The notes beneath the pieces were generated by a model. That model did no database searches. It was given only the letters and a program-made list of their open reading frames with translations, and was not told the DNA's origin. From positions 129,629 through 193,628 of the forward strand of contig JAGORL010000002.1 of assembly GCA_018062825.1 (NCBI GenBank): DNA of 64,000 nucleotides, read 5' to 3'. Of the stretch, positions 42,281 through 50,405 are shown one piece after another (the first letter of the stretch is position 1; each line of letters starts with the position of its first letter). The stretch is from Patescibacteria group bacterium (GTDB taxonomy: Bacteria > Patescibacteriota > Patescibacteriia > UBA9934). Both the position numbers and the translations under genes were made by a program.

Positions 42281-42331
42281 AAAAGAAAACCGGCGCACCC
42301 CTCCCACCCGAAGGTAGAAGAAGTGCGCCGG
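42281..42331 (-). terminator. Intrinsic terminator with a UUCG loop and G-U wobble pairs (minus-strand specific), followed by a U-tract.
   Basis: Minus strand: ccggcgcac-uucuucuacc-UUCG-ggugggagggg-ugcgccgg-uuuucuuuuu. Confidence 0.7.
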
Positions 42332-42356
42332 TGCGTGCCGCGCGGAGTCGTGTCCG

Positions 42357-45218
42357 CTACGGCGTGATCGTGGCCTCGAACAGGCCGACGCTCGTGATGT
42401 CCACCCCACCCTGCACGCGTCCGGTGCACAGCTCGAGGGTCTGCACGCTGGCAGCCGAGCTCGCAACACCGATGTCGATATGGGTGTGCGTGTTCATGGG
42501 GATGGTGACACAGTCCTGTGCCACCCCATCCAGGTACGCGCAGATGTCGTTGTCGTTGCCGGCCGTGTTGCGAACCGCAAACGACAGAACGTAATCGGTG
42601 GCGATCACGTCCACTTCGATCCCGACACACATGTCGCTATTCACCCAGGCCAGGTTGCCAGGAAGCATGGACATGGCCGCGTAGCTGCCAGCCGTGAGGC
42701 CGGACGCGCTAAGAAACGGCACAGTGTAGGGACCAAGGTCACCGATGACCGCGGTCGTCGACCGATCTTCCGTGATCAGCCAGTCACCGATGGAGTTCGC
42801 GCCCAAGGAATCCTTGAACGTGGAGCTCTCATCGTTGATCAGGTTGAACGGATCGTCGATCGTCGCGCTCGTACCACCGCCGTCAAGGACGATGGTGGTG
42901 AGCACGAACGGGTTGCCGTCACAATCTTCATCCACCGCGGAATCGGTCTCCGTGGCGTCGGGATTGATCGCGGCATCCGTGTCGTCGCAGTCGTCGGCGT
43001 TGTCGGTGTAGTCCGGCGGCTGTGCGCACGCCATGACCGAGTCGAGCGCGTCGCCGTACGTGTCGCCGTCGGCATCCGCGAAGTACTCGAGAAGTCCAGC
43101 GGCGCCGTCGTCGATCGTGCCGTCGCAGTCGTTGTCGAGCCCGTCGCACGCCTCAACGCCACCCGGGAAGGCGAGATCGCTCTCGTCATCACAGTCGTCG
43201 TCGTTCGTGACGTAGTCCGCGCCGGGGCTCGCACACGCCACGGTCGCTGTACCGGCGCCGTACGTGTCGCTGTCACCATCGAGGTAGTAGGAGCTCGTGG
43301 GAAGCCCCTCGTCTGCCGTGGAATCGCAGTCTTGATCGATCCCGTCGCACACTTCCGTGGCGCCGGGCTTGATCGTGCTGTTCGCATCGTTGCAGTCGAG
43401 GGCGTCGTTCGCCTCTCCCGCATCGGTGCAATCGAGGTCCGCGCTCGCAACGGTCAGGCTCGACCCGAAGGTGTCGCCATCGGTATCGCGGTAGCAGAGT
43501 TCCGTTCCATTGCAGTTGTTGTCGAGCCCGTCAGCCACGATTTCACTCGCCGTCGGCTTCACCGAGGCAAGCGCATCGTTGCAGTCTTCGTCGTTCGTGA
43601 CGTAGCCAACCGGCGCTTCGCACCGGAGCACCGAGACGCTCGGGTTGCCGAACGTGTCGCCGTCGGAATCGACGTAGAAGGTGGTGTAGCCATCCTCCAC
43701 GTGCGAATCGTCGTCATCCACGTCCCCATCACAATCGTCATCGAAGCCGTTGCACAGCTCGTAGGCGCCCGGGTTCACGTCGATGTTGCCATCGTCACAA
43801 TCCCCAGAAACGTCCACGTAGTCCGGCCCCGGGCTCGCACACGAGTTCGTTGCCGAACCCGCGCCGTACCCGTCACCGTCATCGTCGAGATACCAGTCCG
43901 CGAGGATCACGGCACCGTCGTCGATCACGCCGTTGCAATCGTCATCAACACCGTTGCAGATCTCGGTGGCGCCGGGGTAGCTCTGCGGACGATCGTCCGC
44001 ACAGTCCGTGGCGTCCGCCACGTACCCGTCACCCTCGAAACACTGCAGGCTCATGATGGCCGCGTTGCCGTACGCATCCCCATCTGCATCCCGGAAGAAC
44101 GCCGAGAAGTAGGTGGAGTCGTTGTCGGCCGTGCCGTCGCAGTCGTTGTCGAGCCCGTCGCAGATGTCATCCGCGATCGGATTCACGTCTTCGTCGGCGT
44201 CGTCACAGTCGTCCGGATTGATCGCATGCCCGAAAGGCAGCGAACACGCCAGTACGAACTCGTTCGTTCCGTACCCGTCACCGTCATCGTCCACGTAGAA
44301 CGCCTGGAGGTCGAGGGCTTCCTCATCCACCAGGGCATCACAGTCGTTGTCGATCCCATCACAGTACTCGTCCGCGCCAGGGGCGATCGTGAAATCGCCA
44401 TCGTCACAGTCGTCGCACGCCGGAACGCCGTCGCCGTCGTTGTCGTCACTGCCGACGTAGCCGTCGCAGTTGTTGTCAACACCGGTGAGGCAGTCCTCGG
44501 GAGCGCTCGGGTAGGTGAGGCTGTCGACGTCGTCGCAGTCGCCCGAAAGCGCCACGTAATCCGTCGGCACCTCGCACGCCGCGACCGTCACGAGCTCGTT
44601 GCCGAACCCGTCACCGTCCGAGTCTTCGTACCAGGTGATCGCATCGACCGCGTTGTCATCCGGCAAGCCGGAGCAGTCGTTGTCGATCCCATCGCAGTAC
44701 TCGTCGGCGTCCGGGTTCACATCTTCGTTCTCGTCGTCGCAGTCGTCGCCAGCCGTGAAGCCGTCGCCGTCGTTGTCGATCGGGTCGATGATGATGTCCT
44801 CGCCGTCGCAGTCTTCGTCCACTCCGTTGTTCGGGGTGTCCGTCGCGTCCGGGTTGACGGTGCGCTCGGTGTCGTCGCAGTCGTCCGAGTTCGTCACGAA
44901 CCCGGTAGCGTCGCCACACGTGGAGTAGCCGACCTCGGAATCTCCGAAGCCGTCGTTGTCCTCGTCCGCATAGTACTGGACCGACTCGTCCGGGGTAGCC
45001 GGATTACAGTCGTTGTCGAACCCGTCGTCACACACTTCAGCGTGACCGGGGTGGATGGCGCTGTTCGCATCGTTGCAGTCGTCTTCGGCGATCACGCCGT
45101 CGTCGTCTGCGTCGTTGAGGTCAACATACCGCTCGGGCTCGACGATCGTGAGAGTCGCCGGCCCGCACCCCGTCAAAACACCAATCACGGCGATGACGAG
45201 GAAGAAGTACCTGTTCAT
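42357..45218 (-). CDS. 953-aa acidic lipoprotein with about 12 tandem MopE-like/TSP3-like Asp/Cys repeats, probably binding metal or Ca2+.
   Basis: Lipobox 'VLTGC'. Repeats 'DEDNDGFGD...CxxxxGxVxNxDDCDDxxxxVNPxAxExCDGIDNDCDG'. About 65% GC. The antisense 921-aa ORF is R/V/A junk. Confidence 0.75.
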   Translation of the reverse strand: MNRYFFLVIAVIGVLTGCGPATLTIVEPERYVDLNDADDDGVIAEDDCNDANSAIHPGHAEVCDDGFDNDCNPATPDESVQYYADEDNDGFGDSEVGYSTCGDATGFVTNSDDCDDTERTVNPDATDTPNNGVDEDCDGEDIIIDPIDNDGDGFTAGDDCDDENEDVNPDADEYCDGIDNDCSGLPDDNAVDAITWYEDSDGDGFGNELVTVAACEVPTDYVALSGDCDDVDSLTYPSAPEDCLTGVDNNCDGYVGSDDNDGDGVPACDDCDDGDFTIAPGADEYCDGIDNDCDALVDEEALDLQAFYVDDDGDGYGTNEFVLACSLPFGHAINPDDCDDADEDVNPIADDICDGLDNDCDGTADNDSTYFSAFFRDADGDAYGNAAIMSLQCFEGDGYVADATDCADDRPQSYPGATEICNGVDDDCNGVIDDGAVILADWYLDDDGDGYGAGSATNSCASPGPDYVDVSGDCDDGNIDVNPGAYELCNGFDDDCDGDVDDDDSHVEDGYTTFYVDSDGDTFGNPSVSVLRCEAPVGYVTNDEDCNDALASVKPTASEIVADGLDNNCNGTELCYRDTDGDTFGSSLTVASADLDCTDAGEANDALDCNDANSTIKPGATEVCDGIDQDCDSTADEGLPTSSYYLDGDSDTYGAGTATVACASPGADYVTNDDDCDDESDLAFPGGVEACDGLDNDCDGTIDDGAAGLLEYFADADGDTYGDALDSVMACAQPPDYTDNADDCDDTDAAINPDATETDSAVDEDCDGNPFVLTTIVLDGGGTSATIDDPFNLINDESSTFKDSLGANSIGDWLITEDRSTTAVIGDLGPYTVPFLSASGLTAGSYAAMSMLPGNLAWVNSDMCVGIEVDVIATDYVLSFAVRNTAGNDNDICAYLDGVAQDCVTIPMNTHTHIDIGVASSAASVQTLELCTGRVQGGVDITSVGLFEATITP

Positions 45219-45287
45219 GAGAACCTCGGGCTACAGGGTGAATAGGAACGTGATTTTTCACACGCTAATTGTGAACGAACTAGGCTA

Positions 45288-45316
45288 AATATAGCAAAAA
45301 AATGGCATTTTGTCAA
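45288..45316 (-). promoter_or_regulatory. Extended -10 promoter TTGACA-N17-TGcTATATT.
   Basis: Minus strand: gaTTGACAaaatgccatttttttGcTATATTtagcc, about 63 nt upstream of the ATG at 45218. Confidence 0.6.
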
Positions 45317-45317
45317 T

Positions 45318-49443: not shown

Positions 49444-49474
49444 GGGTGAACGTATGTATTTAGGCTAATATAAG

Positions 49475-49520
49475 CCATAAAAGAAGAATTCCCCCACGCA
49501 GCCGAAGCTGGTGGGGGAAC
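49475..49520 (-). terminator. Rho-independent terminator with a UUCG tetraloop.
   Basis: Minus strand: guucccccac-cagc-UUCG-gcug-c-gugggggaa-uucuucuuuuau. Confidence 0.7.
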
Positions 49521-49541
49521 GAGCGTCGACCGAAGTCGATG

Positions 49542-50183
49542 CTAGAACGTGTGGTCGCAGGTCGTCGGACCTGGCTCGAGGACTTCGCCGTCGGAGAAGA
49601 GGAAACAGGCGGAACCGCGAGCGAACTGGTCCTGCCAGTAGTACTGGCTGGAGTTCGGCACCTCCGCCCACTCGAGCCGCGACGTGTCGTCGAGGTCGTT
49701 GAGGGCGCGGAAGTTCACGCGGTGTGGGCCTTCGAGGGTGAGGTTGGCGCAACGCCAGGTCTCCCCCGCGTGCTCCCACACATACGCCTCGACGGCCGAG
49801 GTGACCCAGTCGCCGCAAGCGGAGTTGGGATCCTCGGAGTCGGGGACGCCGTCGTTGTCGCAGTCCTCGTCCTCGTCGACCCACGGCTCTCCGGACAGGC
49901 CGTAGCCCACCAGGTATCCGACCTCGGAGTACCCGAACAGATCGTTCCGCCCGCAGAAGCTGGCGACCTGACCGTTCTCGTTCGTGAACGCCAGGTGGTA
50001 CTGCTTCCCGTCGGGCTCGCCGTTCTCGTCGAAGTCGGACGACTCGTCGCCGGCGTCGCGGTCGGGACGGTCGCTGCTCTCGCAGGCGACCTCCTCCCCG
50101 GCGCTGTTGGTGCACACCGGCTGTTGGCAGCCGATGAGGAACAGGGACGCGAGGATGGTGTTCAGGAACAAGCTGCCATTCAT
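49542..50183 (-). CDS. Acidic secreted lipoprotein (about 213 aa) with Asp/Cys-rich segments.
   Basis: The start was trimmed to MNGSLFLNTILASLFLIGC (lipobox). The 37-residue N-terminal extension in the ORF track lacks signal-peptide character. Confidence 0.6.
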   Translation of the reverse strand: MNGSLFLNTILASLFLIGCQQPVCTNSAGEEVACESSDRPDRDAGDESSDFDENGEPDGKQYHLAFTNENGQVASFCGRNDLFGYSEVGYLVGYGLSGEPWVDEDEDCDNDGVPDSEDPNSACGDWVTSAVEAYVWEHAGETWRCANLTLEGPHRVNFRALNDLDDTSRLEWAEVPNSSQYYWQDQFARGSACFLFSDGEVLEPGPTTCDHTF

Positions 50184-50376
50184 GGCGGACTCCAGGATGT
50201 AGGGTTTTCGAACCGGTGGTGAGCATCCACGCCGCTTGCGCAGCGCAGAAGGCGGCGAAGACACTCGCCCGAAAAGCGCTCTAGAGTAAAGCATTTTTCG
50301 GGAGAGACCTTCGCCACTGCTCGCCAGATATAAATCCGTGGAAGTGGGGCCAGAATGGCGCTGTAAAGAACGTAAG

Positions 50377-50405
50377 TTTATACCATTTTTTTACAGAAAT
50401 GTCAA
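50377..50405 (-). promoter_or_regulatory. Extended -10 promoter TTGACA-N17-TGgTATAAA.
   Basis: Minus strand: ccTTGACAtttctgtaaaaaaaTGgTATAAActtac. Confidence 0.5.

Follow-up and report, generated by a model that had tools for sequence, protein, structure and literature searches.

A conserved array of hyper-acidic lipoprotein genes with a maintained third-codon-position GC excess in a Patescibacteria genome

Loops of the DxDxDG type bind Ca2+ in many protein folds, and separate strong promoters are typical of abundant structural proteins. S-layer genes combine a strong promoter with a long structured leader and a strong terminator, and phage 'morons' carry their own promoter and terminator and deviate in base composition. 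In CPR Peribacteria, clustered genes encode large Cys-rich extracellular proteins with a proposed role in attachment, which show weak similarity to Myxococcus Cys-rich repeats and vary between strains (Anantharaman et al. 2016, PMC4736985). Here, we describe five genes (g1-g5) in the MAG (48% GC) of an ultra-small, uncultured bacterium of the Patescibacteria (CPR), located in a window of 64,000 nucleotides (the whole stretch of DNA that was analysed). At a probability of about 0.6, we read them as a conserved, lineage-restricted cell-envelope array of hyper-acidic lipoproteins, likely forming a polyanionic, cation-binding attachment layer, in which a high GC content at third codon positions (GC3) is maintained.

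Gene structure and predicted transcription signals

An ORF check confirmed all five genes on the minus strand at the positions first proposed, except that the upstream end of g2 moves from 46071 to a GTG start at 46047; the resulting 226-aa sequence is identical to NCBI MBP9828109.1, 'putative metal-binding motif-containing protein [Patescibacteria group bacterium]'. The g5 product is named KBC55_03065, hypothetical protein, at NCBI, and the g1 product had no entry in the protein collection searched. A chimeric join is excluded, since both island borders recur in independent assemblies: segments L097 and L001 correspond to window positions 39698-43148 and 46156-50577, respectively, and L005, from another assembly, to 49329-51606 at 99.8% identity. 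The features are as follows:

42280-42332, minus strand: g1 terminator; 20-bp stem, UUCG loop, U tract; -43.9 kcal/mol, z -6.3
42357-45218, minus strand: g1; 953-aa lipoprotein, LTGC; PF11617 array of twelve Asp/Cys repeats, followed by a ~190-aa C-terminal domain without repeats
45288-45316, minus strand: g1 promoter; TTGACA-N17-TGcTATATT
45319-45361, minus strand: g2 terminator; 11-bp outer stem extended by 3 bp to a GAAA loop, U tract; -27.4 kcal/mol, z -5.4
45367-46047, minus strand: g2; 226-aa lipoprotein, LGGC; two PF11617 repeats, C-terminal tail with GCxC motifs, hydrophobic helix and RRKR
46089-46117, minus strand: g2 promoter; TTTACA-N17-TGcTATATT
46270-46320, minus strand: g3 terminator; 18-bp stem, UUCG loop; z -4.4
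46347-47705, minus strand: g3; 452-aa lipoprotein, TSAC; g4 paralogue with two degenerate repeat units
47801-47830, minus strand: g3 promoter; TTGACA-N18-TGgTAGTAT
47975-48027, minus strand: g4 terminator; 20-bp stem, UUCG loop; -47.6 kcal/mol, z -6.3
48059-49315, minus strand: g4; 418-aa lipoprotein, LAAC; acidic tail, domain X, PF11617 unit with polyacidic linker, second domain X
49415-49443, minus strand: g4 promoter; TTGACA-N17-TGtTACTAT
49479-49520, minus strand: g5 terminator; 14-bp stem, UUCG loop, U tract; -31.5 kcal/mol, z -5.6
49542-50183, minus strand: g5; ORF for a 213-aa lipoprotein, LIGC; orphan acidic protein rich in Cys, no PF11617 repeat
50377-50405, minus strand: g5 promoter; TTGACA-N17-TGgTATAAA, extended -10, read from the sequence

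The promoter scan returned the form TTGACA/TTTACA-N17/18-TGn-TAnnnT for g1-g4, and TG precedes the -10 element in all five promoters, including that of g3, to which the sequence-only reading had assigned a plain -10. The same reading gave every gene a UUCG-loop terminator, which is correct for four genes; the g2 terminator instead closes on a GAAA loop, with its stem running through CCU...AGG. The five terminators fold at z -4.4 to -6.3, those of g3 and g4 being near-identical. A promoter and terminator of its own is predicted for each gene, as first proposed, and spacers in orthologous loci are 80-90% identical as against 52-80% for the proteins. The g1 promoter hexamers are identical in L095, where the g1 terminator is kept and the spacer holding the g2 terminator is 90% conserved; L008 keeps the g3 promoter and has a counterpart of the g2 promoter (TTGACA...TGCTATATT); and L007 keeps the g4 promoter in a spacer of 83% identity. 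Leaders of g3 and g4 (the latter 97 nt) open with a 5' stem-loop, of ~15 bp in g4, and the last 150 nt of the ~190-nt g5 leader fold at -69 kcal/mol (z -5.5). The stretch of the g5 leader that the orthologue L007 contains resembles it, as judged by eye from unaligned sequences. The earlier description of the array as strongly expressed was drawn from signals only and was overstated; such signals suggest that expression of g1-g5 may be high.

Domain content of the five lipoproteins

Each product carries the lipoprotein signal originally reported (lipoboxes LTGC, LGGC, TSAC, LAAC and LIGC in g1-g5, placing Cys at 17-19), so that all five are predicted to be lipidated and surface-exposed. Asp and Glu make up 21-36% of the proteins, and mature net charge ranges from ~-33 to ~-227, the extreme being g1 (~-227), with g3 at ~-139 (D+E 36.5%). 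DxDxDG motifs are found in every one of the five proteins and polyacidic linkers in g3 and g4; the extreme acidity and the motifs, both present as claimed, are consistent with binding of hard cations. Not counting the lipidated Cys, g1, g3, g4 and g5 have an even number of Cys residues; g2 does so only if the Cys of the RRKRCA tail, past the C-terminal hydrophobic segment, is also left out.

Profile searches place g1 and g2 in the PF11617 'putative metal-binding motif' family, in agreement with the sequence-only reading, with 12 stretches in g1 (309.6 bits, E 2e-94) and two matches in g2 (E 1e-19; Pfam). The middle segment of g4 contains one PF11617 unit of 28 bits, which reaches the cut-off (27 bits) only when that segment is scanned in isolation; g3 has no Pfam match, its isolated middle segment included, and g5 has none in Pfam or NCBIfam. 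The description of four genes as repeat-built is overstated: full-length matches are confined to g1 and g2, and g3 and g4 consist mostly of two orphan beta-sandwich copies, placed on either side of a degenerate repeat and a polyacidic linker. Pfam did not recover the suggested likeness to TSP type-3 repeats, even when isolated segments were searched with the limit relaxed to E<=10, and neither TSP_3 nor other Ca-binding profiles matched g1-g5, isolated segments included.

The 12 DxDxDG motifs of g1 form loops, one in each repeat, and every repeat also has a Cys-flanked DxDNDCDG stretch; the repeats are modelled by AF2 at pLDDT >90 and the tip at 30-66. The best Foldseek matches of g1 are CBM35/36/6 and the receptor-binding domains of phage lambda gpJ and CDTb (E 3e-3 to 3e-2); these all have E >1e-3 and are listed without query ranges, and we tentatively assign them to the tip domain, which might then be called CBM-like and which is common to just one other protein, P0125. 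In other proteins, as annotated by Pfam, PF11617 arrays occur together with Lectin_C, fibrinogen-C, discoidin, LTD and FG-GAP modules, and such fusions are consistent with a stalk or spacer role. The g2 tail, the sole tail tested against MYXO-CTERM, matched neither that model nor an NCBIfam sorting signal. Alignment shows g3 and g4 to be paralogues (31% identity); the AF2 model of g4 contains two beta-sandwiches (pLDDT 70-87), and its two copies of domain X are homologous (E 2e-4). Domain X occurs in only 3 clusters among 1.84e9 representatives and g5 has just 4 homologues among 5.8e9 clusters; g3, g4 and g5 are orphan families.

Codon-level GC excess and its persistence

The GC-rich block noted at the outset is present, with a per-kb GC of 0.59-0.64 over 42-50 kb versus 0.47-0.52 in the flanks; its codon-level basis and its conservation among relatives had both been overlooked. 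GC3 is 0.82, 0.80, 0.94, 0.93 and 0.91 in g1-g5, respectively, compared with 0.38-0.52 (~0.43) in 37 flank genes, while GC1 and GC2 are unchanged relative to the host and the array spacers are host-like (45-58% GC). The excess is wholly synonymous and confined to third positions, and amino-acid content is not its cause. At least four other assemblies contain orthologous arrays, with GC3 of 0.74-0.97; orthologues reach 0.95-0.97 beside spacers of 44-51% GC. Another Patescibacteria MAG (L093) holds a syntenic high-GC3 island with its own consensus promoters adjoining the same Wzy/GT/GT/MATCAP/ECF-sigma/DUF5667 genes, which contradicts the view of the block as alien to its surroundings, and L016 contains an independent island with the same contrast.

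Polarised synonymous changes comprise 35 S>S, 18 S>W and 4 W>S, mostly C<->G swaps. Among contigs of the same metagenome assembly, dS against the window is 0.33 for g4, 0.65 for g5 and 0.85-1.24 for g1 and g2, and is lowest at the highest GC3. The conserved contrast in relatives, the C<->G swaps and the low dS at high GC3 together indicate a maintained bias rather than a fading scar of transfer; nor is it the host translational optimum, since host translation genes avoid the G-ending codons used by the island. The GC3 bias is gene-specific and actively maintained in this clade. Predicted mRNA folding per 120 nt is -44 to -49 kcal/mol in the island against -21 to -35 in host genes, exceeding synonymous shuffles by 3.3-5.7 and 0.5-3.5 kcal/mol, respectively, where the shuffles do not preserve dinucleotides and the island's excess overlaps that of some host genes (rpsB, GT2). 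The most plausible reason for the bias would be that mRNAs rich in G/C, which fold strongly and are enclosed by hairpins at both the 5' and 3' ends, are long-lived.

A recent transfer from a high-GC donor such as Myxococcota, with GC3 as an un-ameliorated and functionless donor signature, appears distinctly unlikely. It would account for the use of both C- and G-ending codons at a GC3 of 0.80-0.94, a pattern like that of a ~70%-GC genome, for the source names of PF11617 matches, mostly Myxococcota or Deltaproteobacteria, and for the net S>W decay of g4 in the window lineage (S>W 12 versus W>S 1). In addition, the closest GTDB relatives (L035, L012 and L013) have no such island after tsf, indicating that the array has been gained and lost. 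However, spacers, promoters and terminators are host-like, the host GT gene at 40932 being preceded by the same promoter type; high GC3 is kept in the other assemblies despite the g1 and g2 dS values; C<->G swaps outnumber S>W changes; and the contrast recurs in the L093 and L016 islands. Two unrelated, non-secreted window genes share the cassette architecture and high GC3, and in a Patescibacterium of 33% GC, a PF11617 gene has the GC3 of its host (0.19), which shows that the family has been present in the phylum for a long time.

Proposed function and comparison with known systems

In the reading that we favour, the genes would form five independent transcription units. Each would be driven by a sigma-70 promoter with an extended -10 close to consensus, carry a leader and a Shine-Dalgarno site, and end in an intrinsic terminator with a long stem. 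Their disulfide-rich products would be exported by Sec, lipidated at the lipobox Cys and seated at the outer surface of the cytoplasmic membrane. g1 would be adhesin-like, with a lipid anchor, a rigid 12-repeat Cys/Asp stalk (PF11617 with a DxDxDG loop) that is probably Ca2+-loaded, and a distal beta-jelly-roll tip resembling carbohydrate- or receptor-binding modules. g2 would be a short two-repeat protein with an additional C-terminal membrane anchor, g3 and g4 would each display two orphan beta-sandwich modules on polyacidic linkers, and g5 would add an orphan Cys-rich protein. Jointly, they probably form a polyanionic, divalent-cation-binding surface layer that attaches to partner-cell glycans, to the cell's own wall polymer (the product of the adjacent glycosyltransferases) or to mineral surfaces. 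Ca2+ binding and adhesion are predictions, and the most likely function is that of a surface coat or adhesin set that is polyanionic and stabilised by Ca2+.

A structural envelope or cation reservoir in place of adhesins, that is, a calsequestrin-like sponge for Ca2+/Mg2+ or a Ca2+-bridged coat tying membrane to wall glycopolymer or preventing mineral encrustation of the cell, seems unlikely. The Asp and Glu content, the charge to -227, the ubiquitous DxDxDG motifs, the polyacidic linkers, the syntenic Wzy/GT neighbours and the five separate strong predicted promoters would suit it, but the g1 terminal module resembles a binding domain in weak fold matches, g1 and its L095 and L093 relatives do not have the same number of PF11617 repeats, and the dN/dS of g3 and g4 (0.43-0.50, inflated by constrained dS) fits interaction surfaces more than bulk structural or buffer proteins. 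Copper acquisition in the style of MopE/CorA, suggested by the Pfam name 'Cu-binding_MopE', is highly improbable. Apart from the PF11617 matches, it draws on the similarity of g1 to the MopE* N-terminus (2vov, E 4e-4), the sole PDB match, which spans MopE* residues 3-43 only, whereas the copper site (two His and kynurenine) sits in the CorA-like core; CorA aligns with just 15/21 MopE* strands. With 3-6 His in each mature protein and no CorA-like domain detectable in them, the MopE-type copper-binding label given earlier is misleading.

MopE/CorA of methanotrophs (PDB 2vov, 4bz4) are likewise surface-associated, and MopE* opens with one PF11617-like unit; the array proteins are without the CorA-like core or its His/His/kynurenine site, and the likeness is limited to ~40 residues outside the copper site. 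With TSP type-3-like and other DxDxDG Ca2+-binding repeats, g1 shares the DxDxDG loop and the Cys-flanked DxDNDCDG, although no such profile is matched and metal binding is putative. Like S-layer genes and morons, the array genes differ from their neighbours in composition and, by prediction, are each transcribed alone from a consensus promoter, with a long hairpin as terminator and, in g3, g4 and g5, a leader that has a 5' stem-loop, but the deviation is limited to synonymous sites and conserved in orthologues, and profile searches detected no S-layer domain or phage gene. The Peribacteria clusters (PMC4736985) similarly combine a CPR host, clustered genes and secreted Cys-rich proteins, whereas the array proteins are lipoproteins, far more acidic and, except for g1, smaller, encoded in separate predicted transcription units; a GC3 anomaly is not reported for the Peribacteria clusters. 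A close relation is also seen to the MopE-related PF11617 repeat proteins, which are most abundant in Myxococcota: g1 (12 units) and g2 (2) pass the Pfam threshold, the consensus YxDxDGDGxG...C...DCDDxxxxxxPGAxExCDGxDNDCDG is common to the array repeats and hundreds of PF11617 matches, and, as in many of these proteins, the repeats are combined with a terminal module of non-repeat sequence. Unlike them, the array has a 48%-GC Patescibacterium as host, an N-terminal lipobox, a g1 tip shared with P0125 only, orphan families in g3, g4 and g5, and an extreme, maintained GC3 foreign to the genome. The kind of protein is already known, and the codon regime is the unusual part.

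Composition, soundness and distribution of the array

All five minus-strand genes that the sequence-only reading had placed in a GC-rich block, g1 to g5, are present as open reading frames, each lying opposite an antisense ORF:

42357-45218 (-): g1, 953 aa; antisense ORF 42480-45245 (+), 921 aa
45367-46047 (-): g2, 226 aa from GTG, identical to NCBI MBP9828109.1; antisense ORF 45349-46095 (+), 248 aa
46347-47705 (-): g3, 452 aa; antisense ORF 46371-47744 (+), 457 aa
48059-49315 (-): g4, 418 aa; antisense ORF 47876-49360 (+), 494 aa
49542-50183 (-): g5, 213 aa; antisense ORF 49539-50222 (+), 227 aa

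A longer in-frame form of g5, from 50294, is not kept in the orthologue. The GC content was 0.59-0.64 per kb at 42-50 kb relative to 0.47-0.52 on either side, and comparison of codon third positions revealed GC3 values of 0.82, 0.80, 0.94, 0.93 and 0.91 for g1 to g5, respectively, against 0.38-0.52 for the 37 other genes of the window. Amino-acid content was rejected as the source of the high GC because the GC1 and GC2 of g1 to g5 could not be distinguished from those of the flanks; the excess is wholly synonymous, and the spacers between the genes have 45-58% GC. Third positions in the array comprise 2.7% A, 59% C, 28% G and 10% T, compared with 18, 21, 24 and 37%, respectively, in the flanks.

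At a GC3 above 0.8 the array genes contain no TTA, CTA or TCA codons, and as a result a full-length, codon-aligned 'shadow' ORF lies opposite each gene. The shadow ORFs were rejected as true genes, with Pfam matches, lipoboxes, promoters and terminators all lying on the sense strand; the predicted proteins on file for a metagenome copy of the contig include at least three of them (921, 248 and 457 aa). An annotated metagenome-assembled genome (MAG; KBC55 locus tags) has g2 to g5 called on the right strand, and the g1 product was absent from the records of the protein collection. Genes of very high GC3 are thus easily missed by protein catalogues, antisense shadow ORFs being called in their place.

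A chimeric join was ruled out, as both borders and the interior recur at 99.8-100% identity in contigs of other assemblies, among them three independent contigs that span the junctions:

39698-43148: glycosyltransferase genes into g1; L097, Logan SRR11088367
46156-50577: g3 to upstream of g5; L001, Logan SRR11088486
49329-51606: rpsB/tsf into g5, 99.8% identity; L005, GCA_020047435.1

In addition, TRF found g1 free of long-period DNA repeats that might collapse in assembly. The proteins of g2 to g5 are assigned by NCBI to 'Patescibacteria group bacterium', and the rpsB of the window is 70-73% identical to that of four CPR-like MAGs, 58-60% to that of Uhrbacteria and ~50% to that of Magasanikbacteria. 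The loci with rpsB, queA and tsf nearest to this Patescibacterium (L011-L013, L035 and many more) are titled 'uncultured Gammaproteobacteria bacterium', which looks like a placeholder or wrong taxonomy. One flank of the array holds tsf, rpsB, queA, RF1 and PrmC, and the other holds two GT4 glycosyltransferases, a MATCAP-family protein, an ECF-type sigma factor, DUF5667, a 1365-aa protein and an S8 peptidase; the wider window has many envelope genes (glycosyltransferases, MreB, DUF4012) and neither tRNAs nor Rfam or phage families. The MATCAP-family gene (PF08014, the family of microtubule-associated tyrosine carboxypeptidase; 38560-39699, +) adjoins glycosyltransferases both here and in L093, a contig of another Patescibacteria MAG.

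In other metagenomes, orthologous loci carry g5 and g4 (L007), g4 (L009 and L010), g3 and g2 (L008), or g2 and g1 together with an additional repeat gene (L095). In these loci, gene order, promoters and terminators are preserved, GC3 is 0.74-0.97 and the spacers have 44-51% GC. Relatives of g1 are shorter, at 569 aa in L095 and 710 aa in L093 relative to 953 aa. Against a background GC3 of ~0.54, L093 holds four high-GC3 genes (0.85-0.90), one encoding a g1-like lipoprotein and three of the four preceded by a strict consensus promoter; they lie directly upstream of Wzy, two glycosyltransferase, MATCAP, sigma and DUF5667 genes, the neighbours found in the window with the exception of Wzy. An independent high-GC block (0.63-0.68 versus 0.46) occurs just upstream of rpsB at 6600-9600 of L016 (Patescibacteria MAG contig JBAZUI010000003.1), where a gene for a 326-aa secreted protein (GC3 0.90) is paired with one for a 405-aa lipoprotein (30% Asp, 6% Cys, GC3 0.93) bearing repeats like those of PF11617, the putative metal-binding (MopE-related) motif. 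The array is not present after tsf in the closest GTDB genomes. A Patescibacterium of 33% GC carries a PF11617 gene at the genome's own GC3 of 0.19 (L091), adjoining sigma and DUF5667 genes, indicating that the family is resident in the phylum and that the GC3 regime is clade-specific. Three Patescibacteria genomes that differ widely in GC have in common a gene for a PF11617 surface protein close to those for an ECF-type sigma factor and a DUF5667 protein (L091, 8001-11203; L093, 8001-18041; the window, 36412-45218).

Expression signals and candidate high-GC3 cassettes

A promoter of the form TTGACA/TTTACA-N17/18-TGn-TAnnnT was found 5' of each of g1 to g5 by consensus scans and, for g5, by eye, and an 11-20-bp hairpin followed by a U tract lies 3' of each (fold z -4.4 to -6.3). 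These signals, retained in the orthologous loci, uphold the proposal that every gene has its own promoter and terminator, and g1 to g5 are predicted to be Rho-independent monocistronic units. The UUCG loop ascribed to every terminator is found in four, that of g2 being GAAA. A 5' stem-loop stands at the start of the g3 and g4 leaders; that of g5 (50184-50376, -) is ~190 nt long, its last 150 nt folding at -69 kcal/mol (z -5.5), and matches no Rfam family. Its portion present in L007 appears similar by eye. Identity to the orthologous loci is 83%, 90% and 80% for the spacers and 52-80% for the encoded proteins; with the spacers the more alike, purifying selection acts on the expression signals.

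Several further features were observed in the intergenic regions. Between the tsf terminator and the g5 promoter (50410-50660) lie several GC-rich hairpins with UUCG- or GAAA-type loops. A block of ~65 nt upstream of the g3 promoter (~47850-47915, -; GATTGACTGGAGGGGTTGTGACGCC...CTGGCAATCGCTTTTTTGTTCCTTATAAT) is near-invariant relative to L008 and includes another promoter-like site, CTGGCA-N17-TATAAT; its role could be that of an additional promoter, a site for a regulator or a small RNA. The heptamer TAGGGRA, with 18 matches where 3.75 are expected, forms tracts at 170-181, 14897-14956, 31236-31300, 42255-42280, 46202-46269, 55176-55187 and 63731-63742, all on the minus strand, those after g1 and g3 lying just beyond the terminators; some adjoin a GGCCCAYTTCGTCCGG element (210, 31276 and 46188). 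With their evenly spaced G3 runs, the tracts could form G-quadruplexes.

Two further high-GC3 units with comparable signals were found in the window:

244-1415 (+): promoter 244-272, ORF 615-1361, terminator ~1385-1415
53808-55149 (-): promoter 55149-55121, ORF 53843-55087, terminator 53839-53808

The former has the promoter TTGACT-N17-TGcTATGAT, a leader of ~340 nt and a GC-rich hairpin with U tract at its end, and encodes an acidic 248-aa protein without a signal peptide (GC3 0.84) that has no PHROGs match; the ORF at 576-1370 on the opposite strand is its shadow and matches no Pfam family. The latter, with a promoter of the g1 to g5 type and a 14-bp terminator, encodes a non-secreted 414-aa protein with a coiled-coil-like C-terminus (GC3 0.73; mRNA folding excess z -5.6), and a syntenic homologue upstream of queA in L035 shows 28% identity and a GC3 of 0.64. 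The strict extended -10 pattern has seven sites in the window, or eight with the g5 promoter recognized by eye; seven of the eight precede high-GC3 genes, namely g1 to g5, 615-1361 (+) and 53843-55087 (-).

Control of the array by the nearby ECF sigma factor and DUF5667 was considered and has no support, because the array promoters are of the housekeeping -35/-10 type. An origin as a prophage moron or phage cassette was likewise rejected, g1 to g5 giving no match to PHROGs and lying among tsf, rpsB and glycosyltransferases. The codon regime does not follow a host translational optimum: among four-fold codons, rpsB, tsf, L31, L25 and RF1 prefer those ending in T or A and avoid those ending in G, and the array makes heavy use of GCG, GTG, ACG, CCG, TCG and GAG. 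Recent horizontal transfer is at odds with the host-type spacers and with the high GC3 of the orthologues despite dS values of up to 1.2. Polarized synonymous changes in three g4 lineages comprised 35 exchanges between C and G, 18 changes from G/C to A/T and 4 from A/T to G/C, and dS between contigs of GCA_044706975.1 and the window (g2, 1.24; g1 C-terminal domain, 0.85; g5, 0.65; g4, 0.33) drops as GC3 rises. Taken together, the host-type spacers, the persistence of GC3 at dS 0.85-1.24, the predominance of C-G exchanges and the trend of dS with GC3 point to third-position G/C being kept by selection or biased conversion.

Folding of the coding sequences per 120 nt amounts to -44 to -49 kcal/mol in the array versus -21 to -35 kcal/mol in host genes; beyond synonymous shuffles the excess is 3.3-5.7 kcal/mol (z -2.5 to -7.1) versus 0.5-3.5 kcal/mol (z -0.4 to -3.6), the two distributions overlapping under a shuffle control without dinucleotide preservation. 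mRNA stability is a hypothetical rationale for the high GC3. We tentatively propose, at a probability of roughly one in four for the reading as a whole, that this Patescibacteria clade would possess autonomous expression cassettes as a class of their own, in which a coding sequence held at GC3 0.8-0.95 would stand between a consensus extended -10 promoter with structured leader on one side and a long terminator hairpin on the other; that selection (or strong GC-biased conversion) would act on their synonymous sites in favour of an mRNA that is rich in G/C, highly folded and resistant to RNase; and that this codon regime, independent of both the mutational equilibrium of the genome and the translational optimum, would serve envelope proteins and a few others (615-1361 and 53843-55087). 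A GC3 that lies ~0.4-0.5 above the genome, is restricted to coding sequence, lasts across diverged lineages and is not the host translational optimum makes the array a clean natural test case for synonymous-site selection or biased conversion in bacteria.

Domain anatomy of the encoded proteins

A pattern search located a lipobox after a hydrophobic stretch at Cys17-19 in g1 to g5 (LTGC, LGGC, TSAC, LAAC and LIGC, respectively); all five conform to the bacterial-lipoprotein signal-peptide pattern and the orthologues keep their lipoboxes, in agreement with the lipoprotein signals first noted from sequence alone. The -3 Thr of g3 is atypical, and its orthologue has LNAC. Neither Lgt nor LspA was found among the proteins scanned from the 64-kb window and ~20 kb of overlapping contig. 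Asp+Glu make up 21-36% of the mature proteins, whose net charges are approximately -227, -38, -139, -115 and -33 for g1 to g5, respectively, and which have 3-6 His each. Without the lipidated Cys, Cys counts are even in g1, g3, g4 and g5, and in g2 only if the Cys of its C-terminal RRKRCA tail is also left out; such counts are consistent with full disulfide pairing.

At the Pfam gathering score of 27 bits, g1 (12 PF11617 stretches, 309.6 bits, a DxDxDG loop before each) and g2 (two stretches, 70.9 bits) belong to PF11617, g4 is marginal (28 bits, only with the middle 77 aa scanned alone), and g3 and g5 gave no match either in full or as isolated segments. The sequence-only reading, which had four proteins built from MopE-type repeats, is therefore upheld for g1 and g2 and overstated for the others, and its suggested resemblance to thrombospondin type-3 repeats found no backing, hmmscan against Pfam reporting no TSP_3 for full proteins at E<=0.1 or for isolated segments at E<=10. 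PF11617 covers a small, non-specific part of MopE, and the copper site (His/His/kynurenine) sits in a CorA-like beta-sandwich core; a copper role like that of MopE/CorA is unsupported because the sole PDB sequence match of g1 by phmmer is to residues 3-43 of MopE* (2vov), no similarity to the CorA-like core being found in the array proteins by the same search, and His is scarce. The MopE-type assignment thus stands for the repeat profile and not for the copper-site core.

The g1 repeats were modelled by AF2 with pLDDT >90, and the last ~190 aa, a tip domain shared with one other protein only (P0125), with pLDDT 30-66. The best fold matches of g1 were carbohydrate-binding modules (CBM35/36/6/16/51) and the receptor-binding domains of phage lambda gpJ and CDTb (E 3e-3 to 3e-2); the search output carries no query ranges, and because the repeats are mostly coil, the matches are provisionally assigned to the tip. 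The C-terminus of g2 (45367-45530, -; compare L095 3-506) has two to three GCxC motifs, a hydrophobic helix and RRKR(C/N)A. This tail, judged by eye, resembles a MYXO-CTERM-type sorting signal in its GCxC, helix and RRKR elements; no NCBIfam sorting-signal family matched it or its L095 orthologue at E<=10, and across g1 to g5 NCBIfam gave nothing useful save a sub-threshold Amuc_1099 match on g2. The protein may be anchored at both ends or processed by an unknown sorting enzyme. The paralogues g3 and g4 (31% identity) each hold two copies of a beta-sandwich, domain X (pLDDT 70-87; copies related at E 2e-4), around polyacidic linkers and degenerate repeat units, of which g4 has one and g3 two; domain X has a generic beta-sandwich structure and was found in three clusters only, of 1.84 billion representatives. 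For g5, four homologues were found among 5.8 billion clusters and no relatives in the genome and metagenome contig collections.

Putative surface role and relation to known systems

CPR/Patescibacteria presumably live attached to other cells, and to our knowledge nearly all of their attachment and envelope proteins are annotated as 'hypothetical'. The array provides a concrete, conserved candidate set for these functions, namely the stalk-and-tip lipoprotein g1 together with the g3/g4 family, g5 and the g1 tip domain as three orphan families. Judging from anatomy, we commit to a putative set of membrane-anchored, polyanionic surface proteins stabilized by disulfides and Ca2+, in which g1 would act as a stalk-and-tip adhesin and paired beta-sandwiches of binding type would be displayed by g3 and g4. 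Three further findings agree with an exposed interaction surface: in other bacteria, PF11617 arrays occur in fusion with lectin, fibrinogen-like and discoidin modules; g1 and its relatives differ in their number of PF11617 repeats; and dN/dS is raised in g3 and g4 (0.43-0.50). The chief competing function is that of a cation reservoir or coat without adhesive activity. The array noticed from sequence is real, and its initial interpretation was right in part.

The literature yielded nothing tying Patescibacteria to MopE or GC3, and the source accessions are cited by no paper. Clusters of Cys-rich extracellular proteins, proposed for attachment, are known in CPR (PMC4736985). The protein class is itself already known in kind, the array being a variant of it, and what is unusual about the array is a conserved GC3 regime that is confined to coding sequence and tied to autonomous cassettes.
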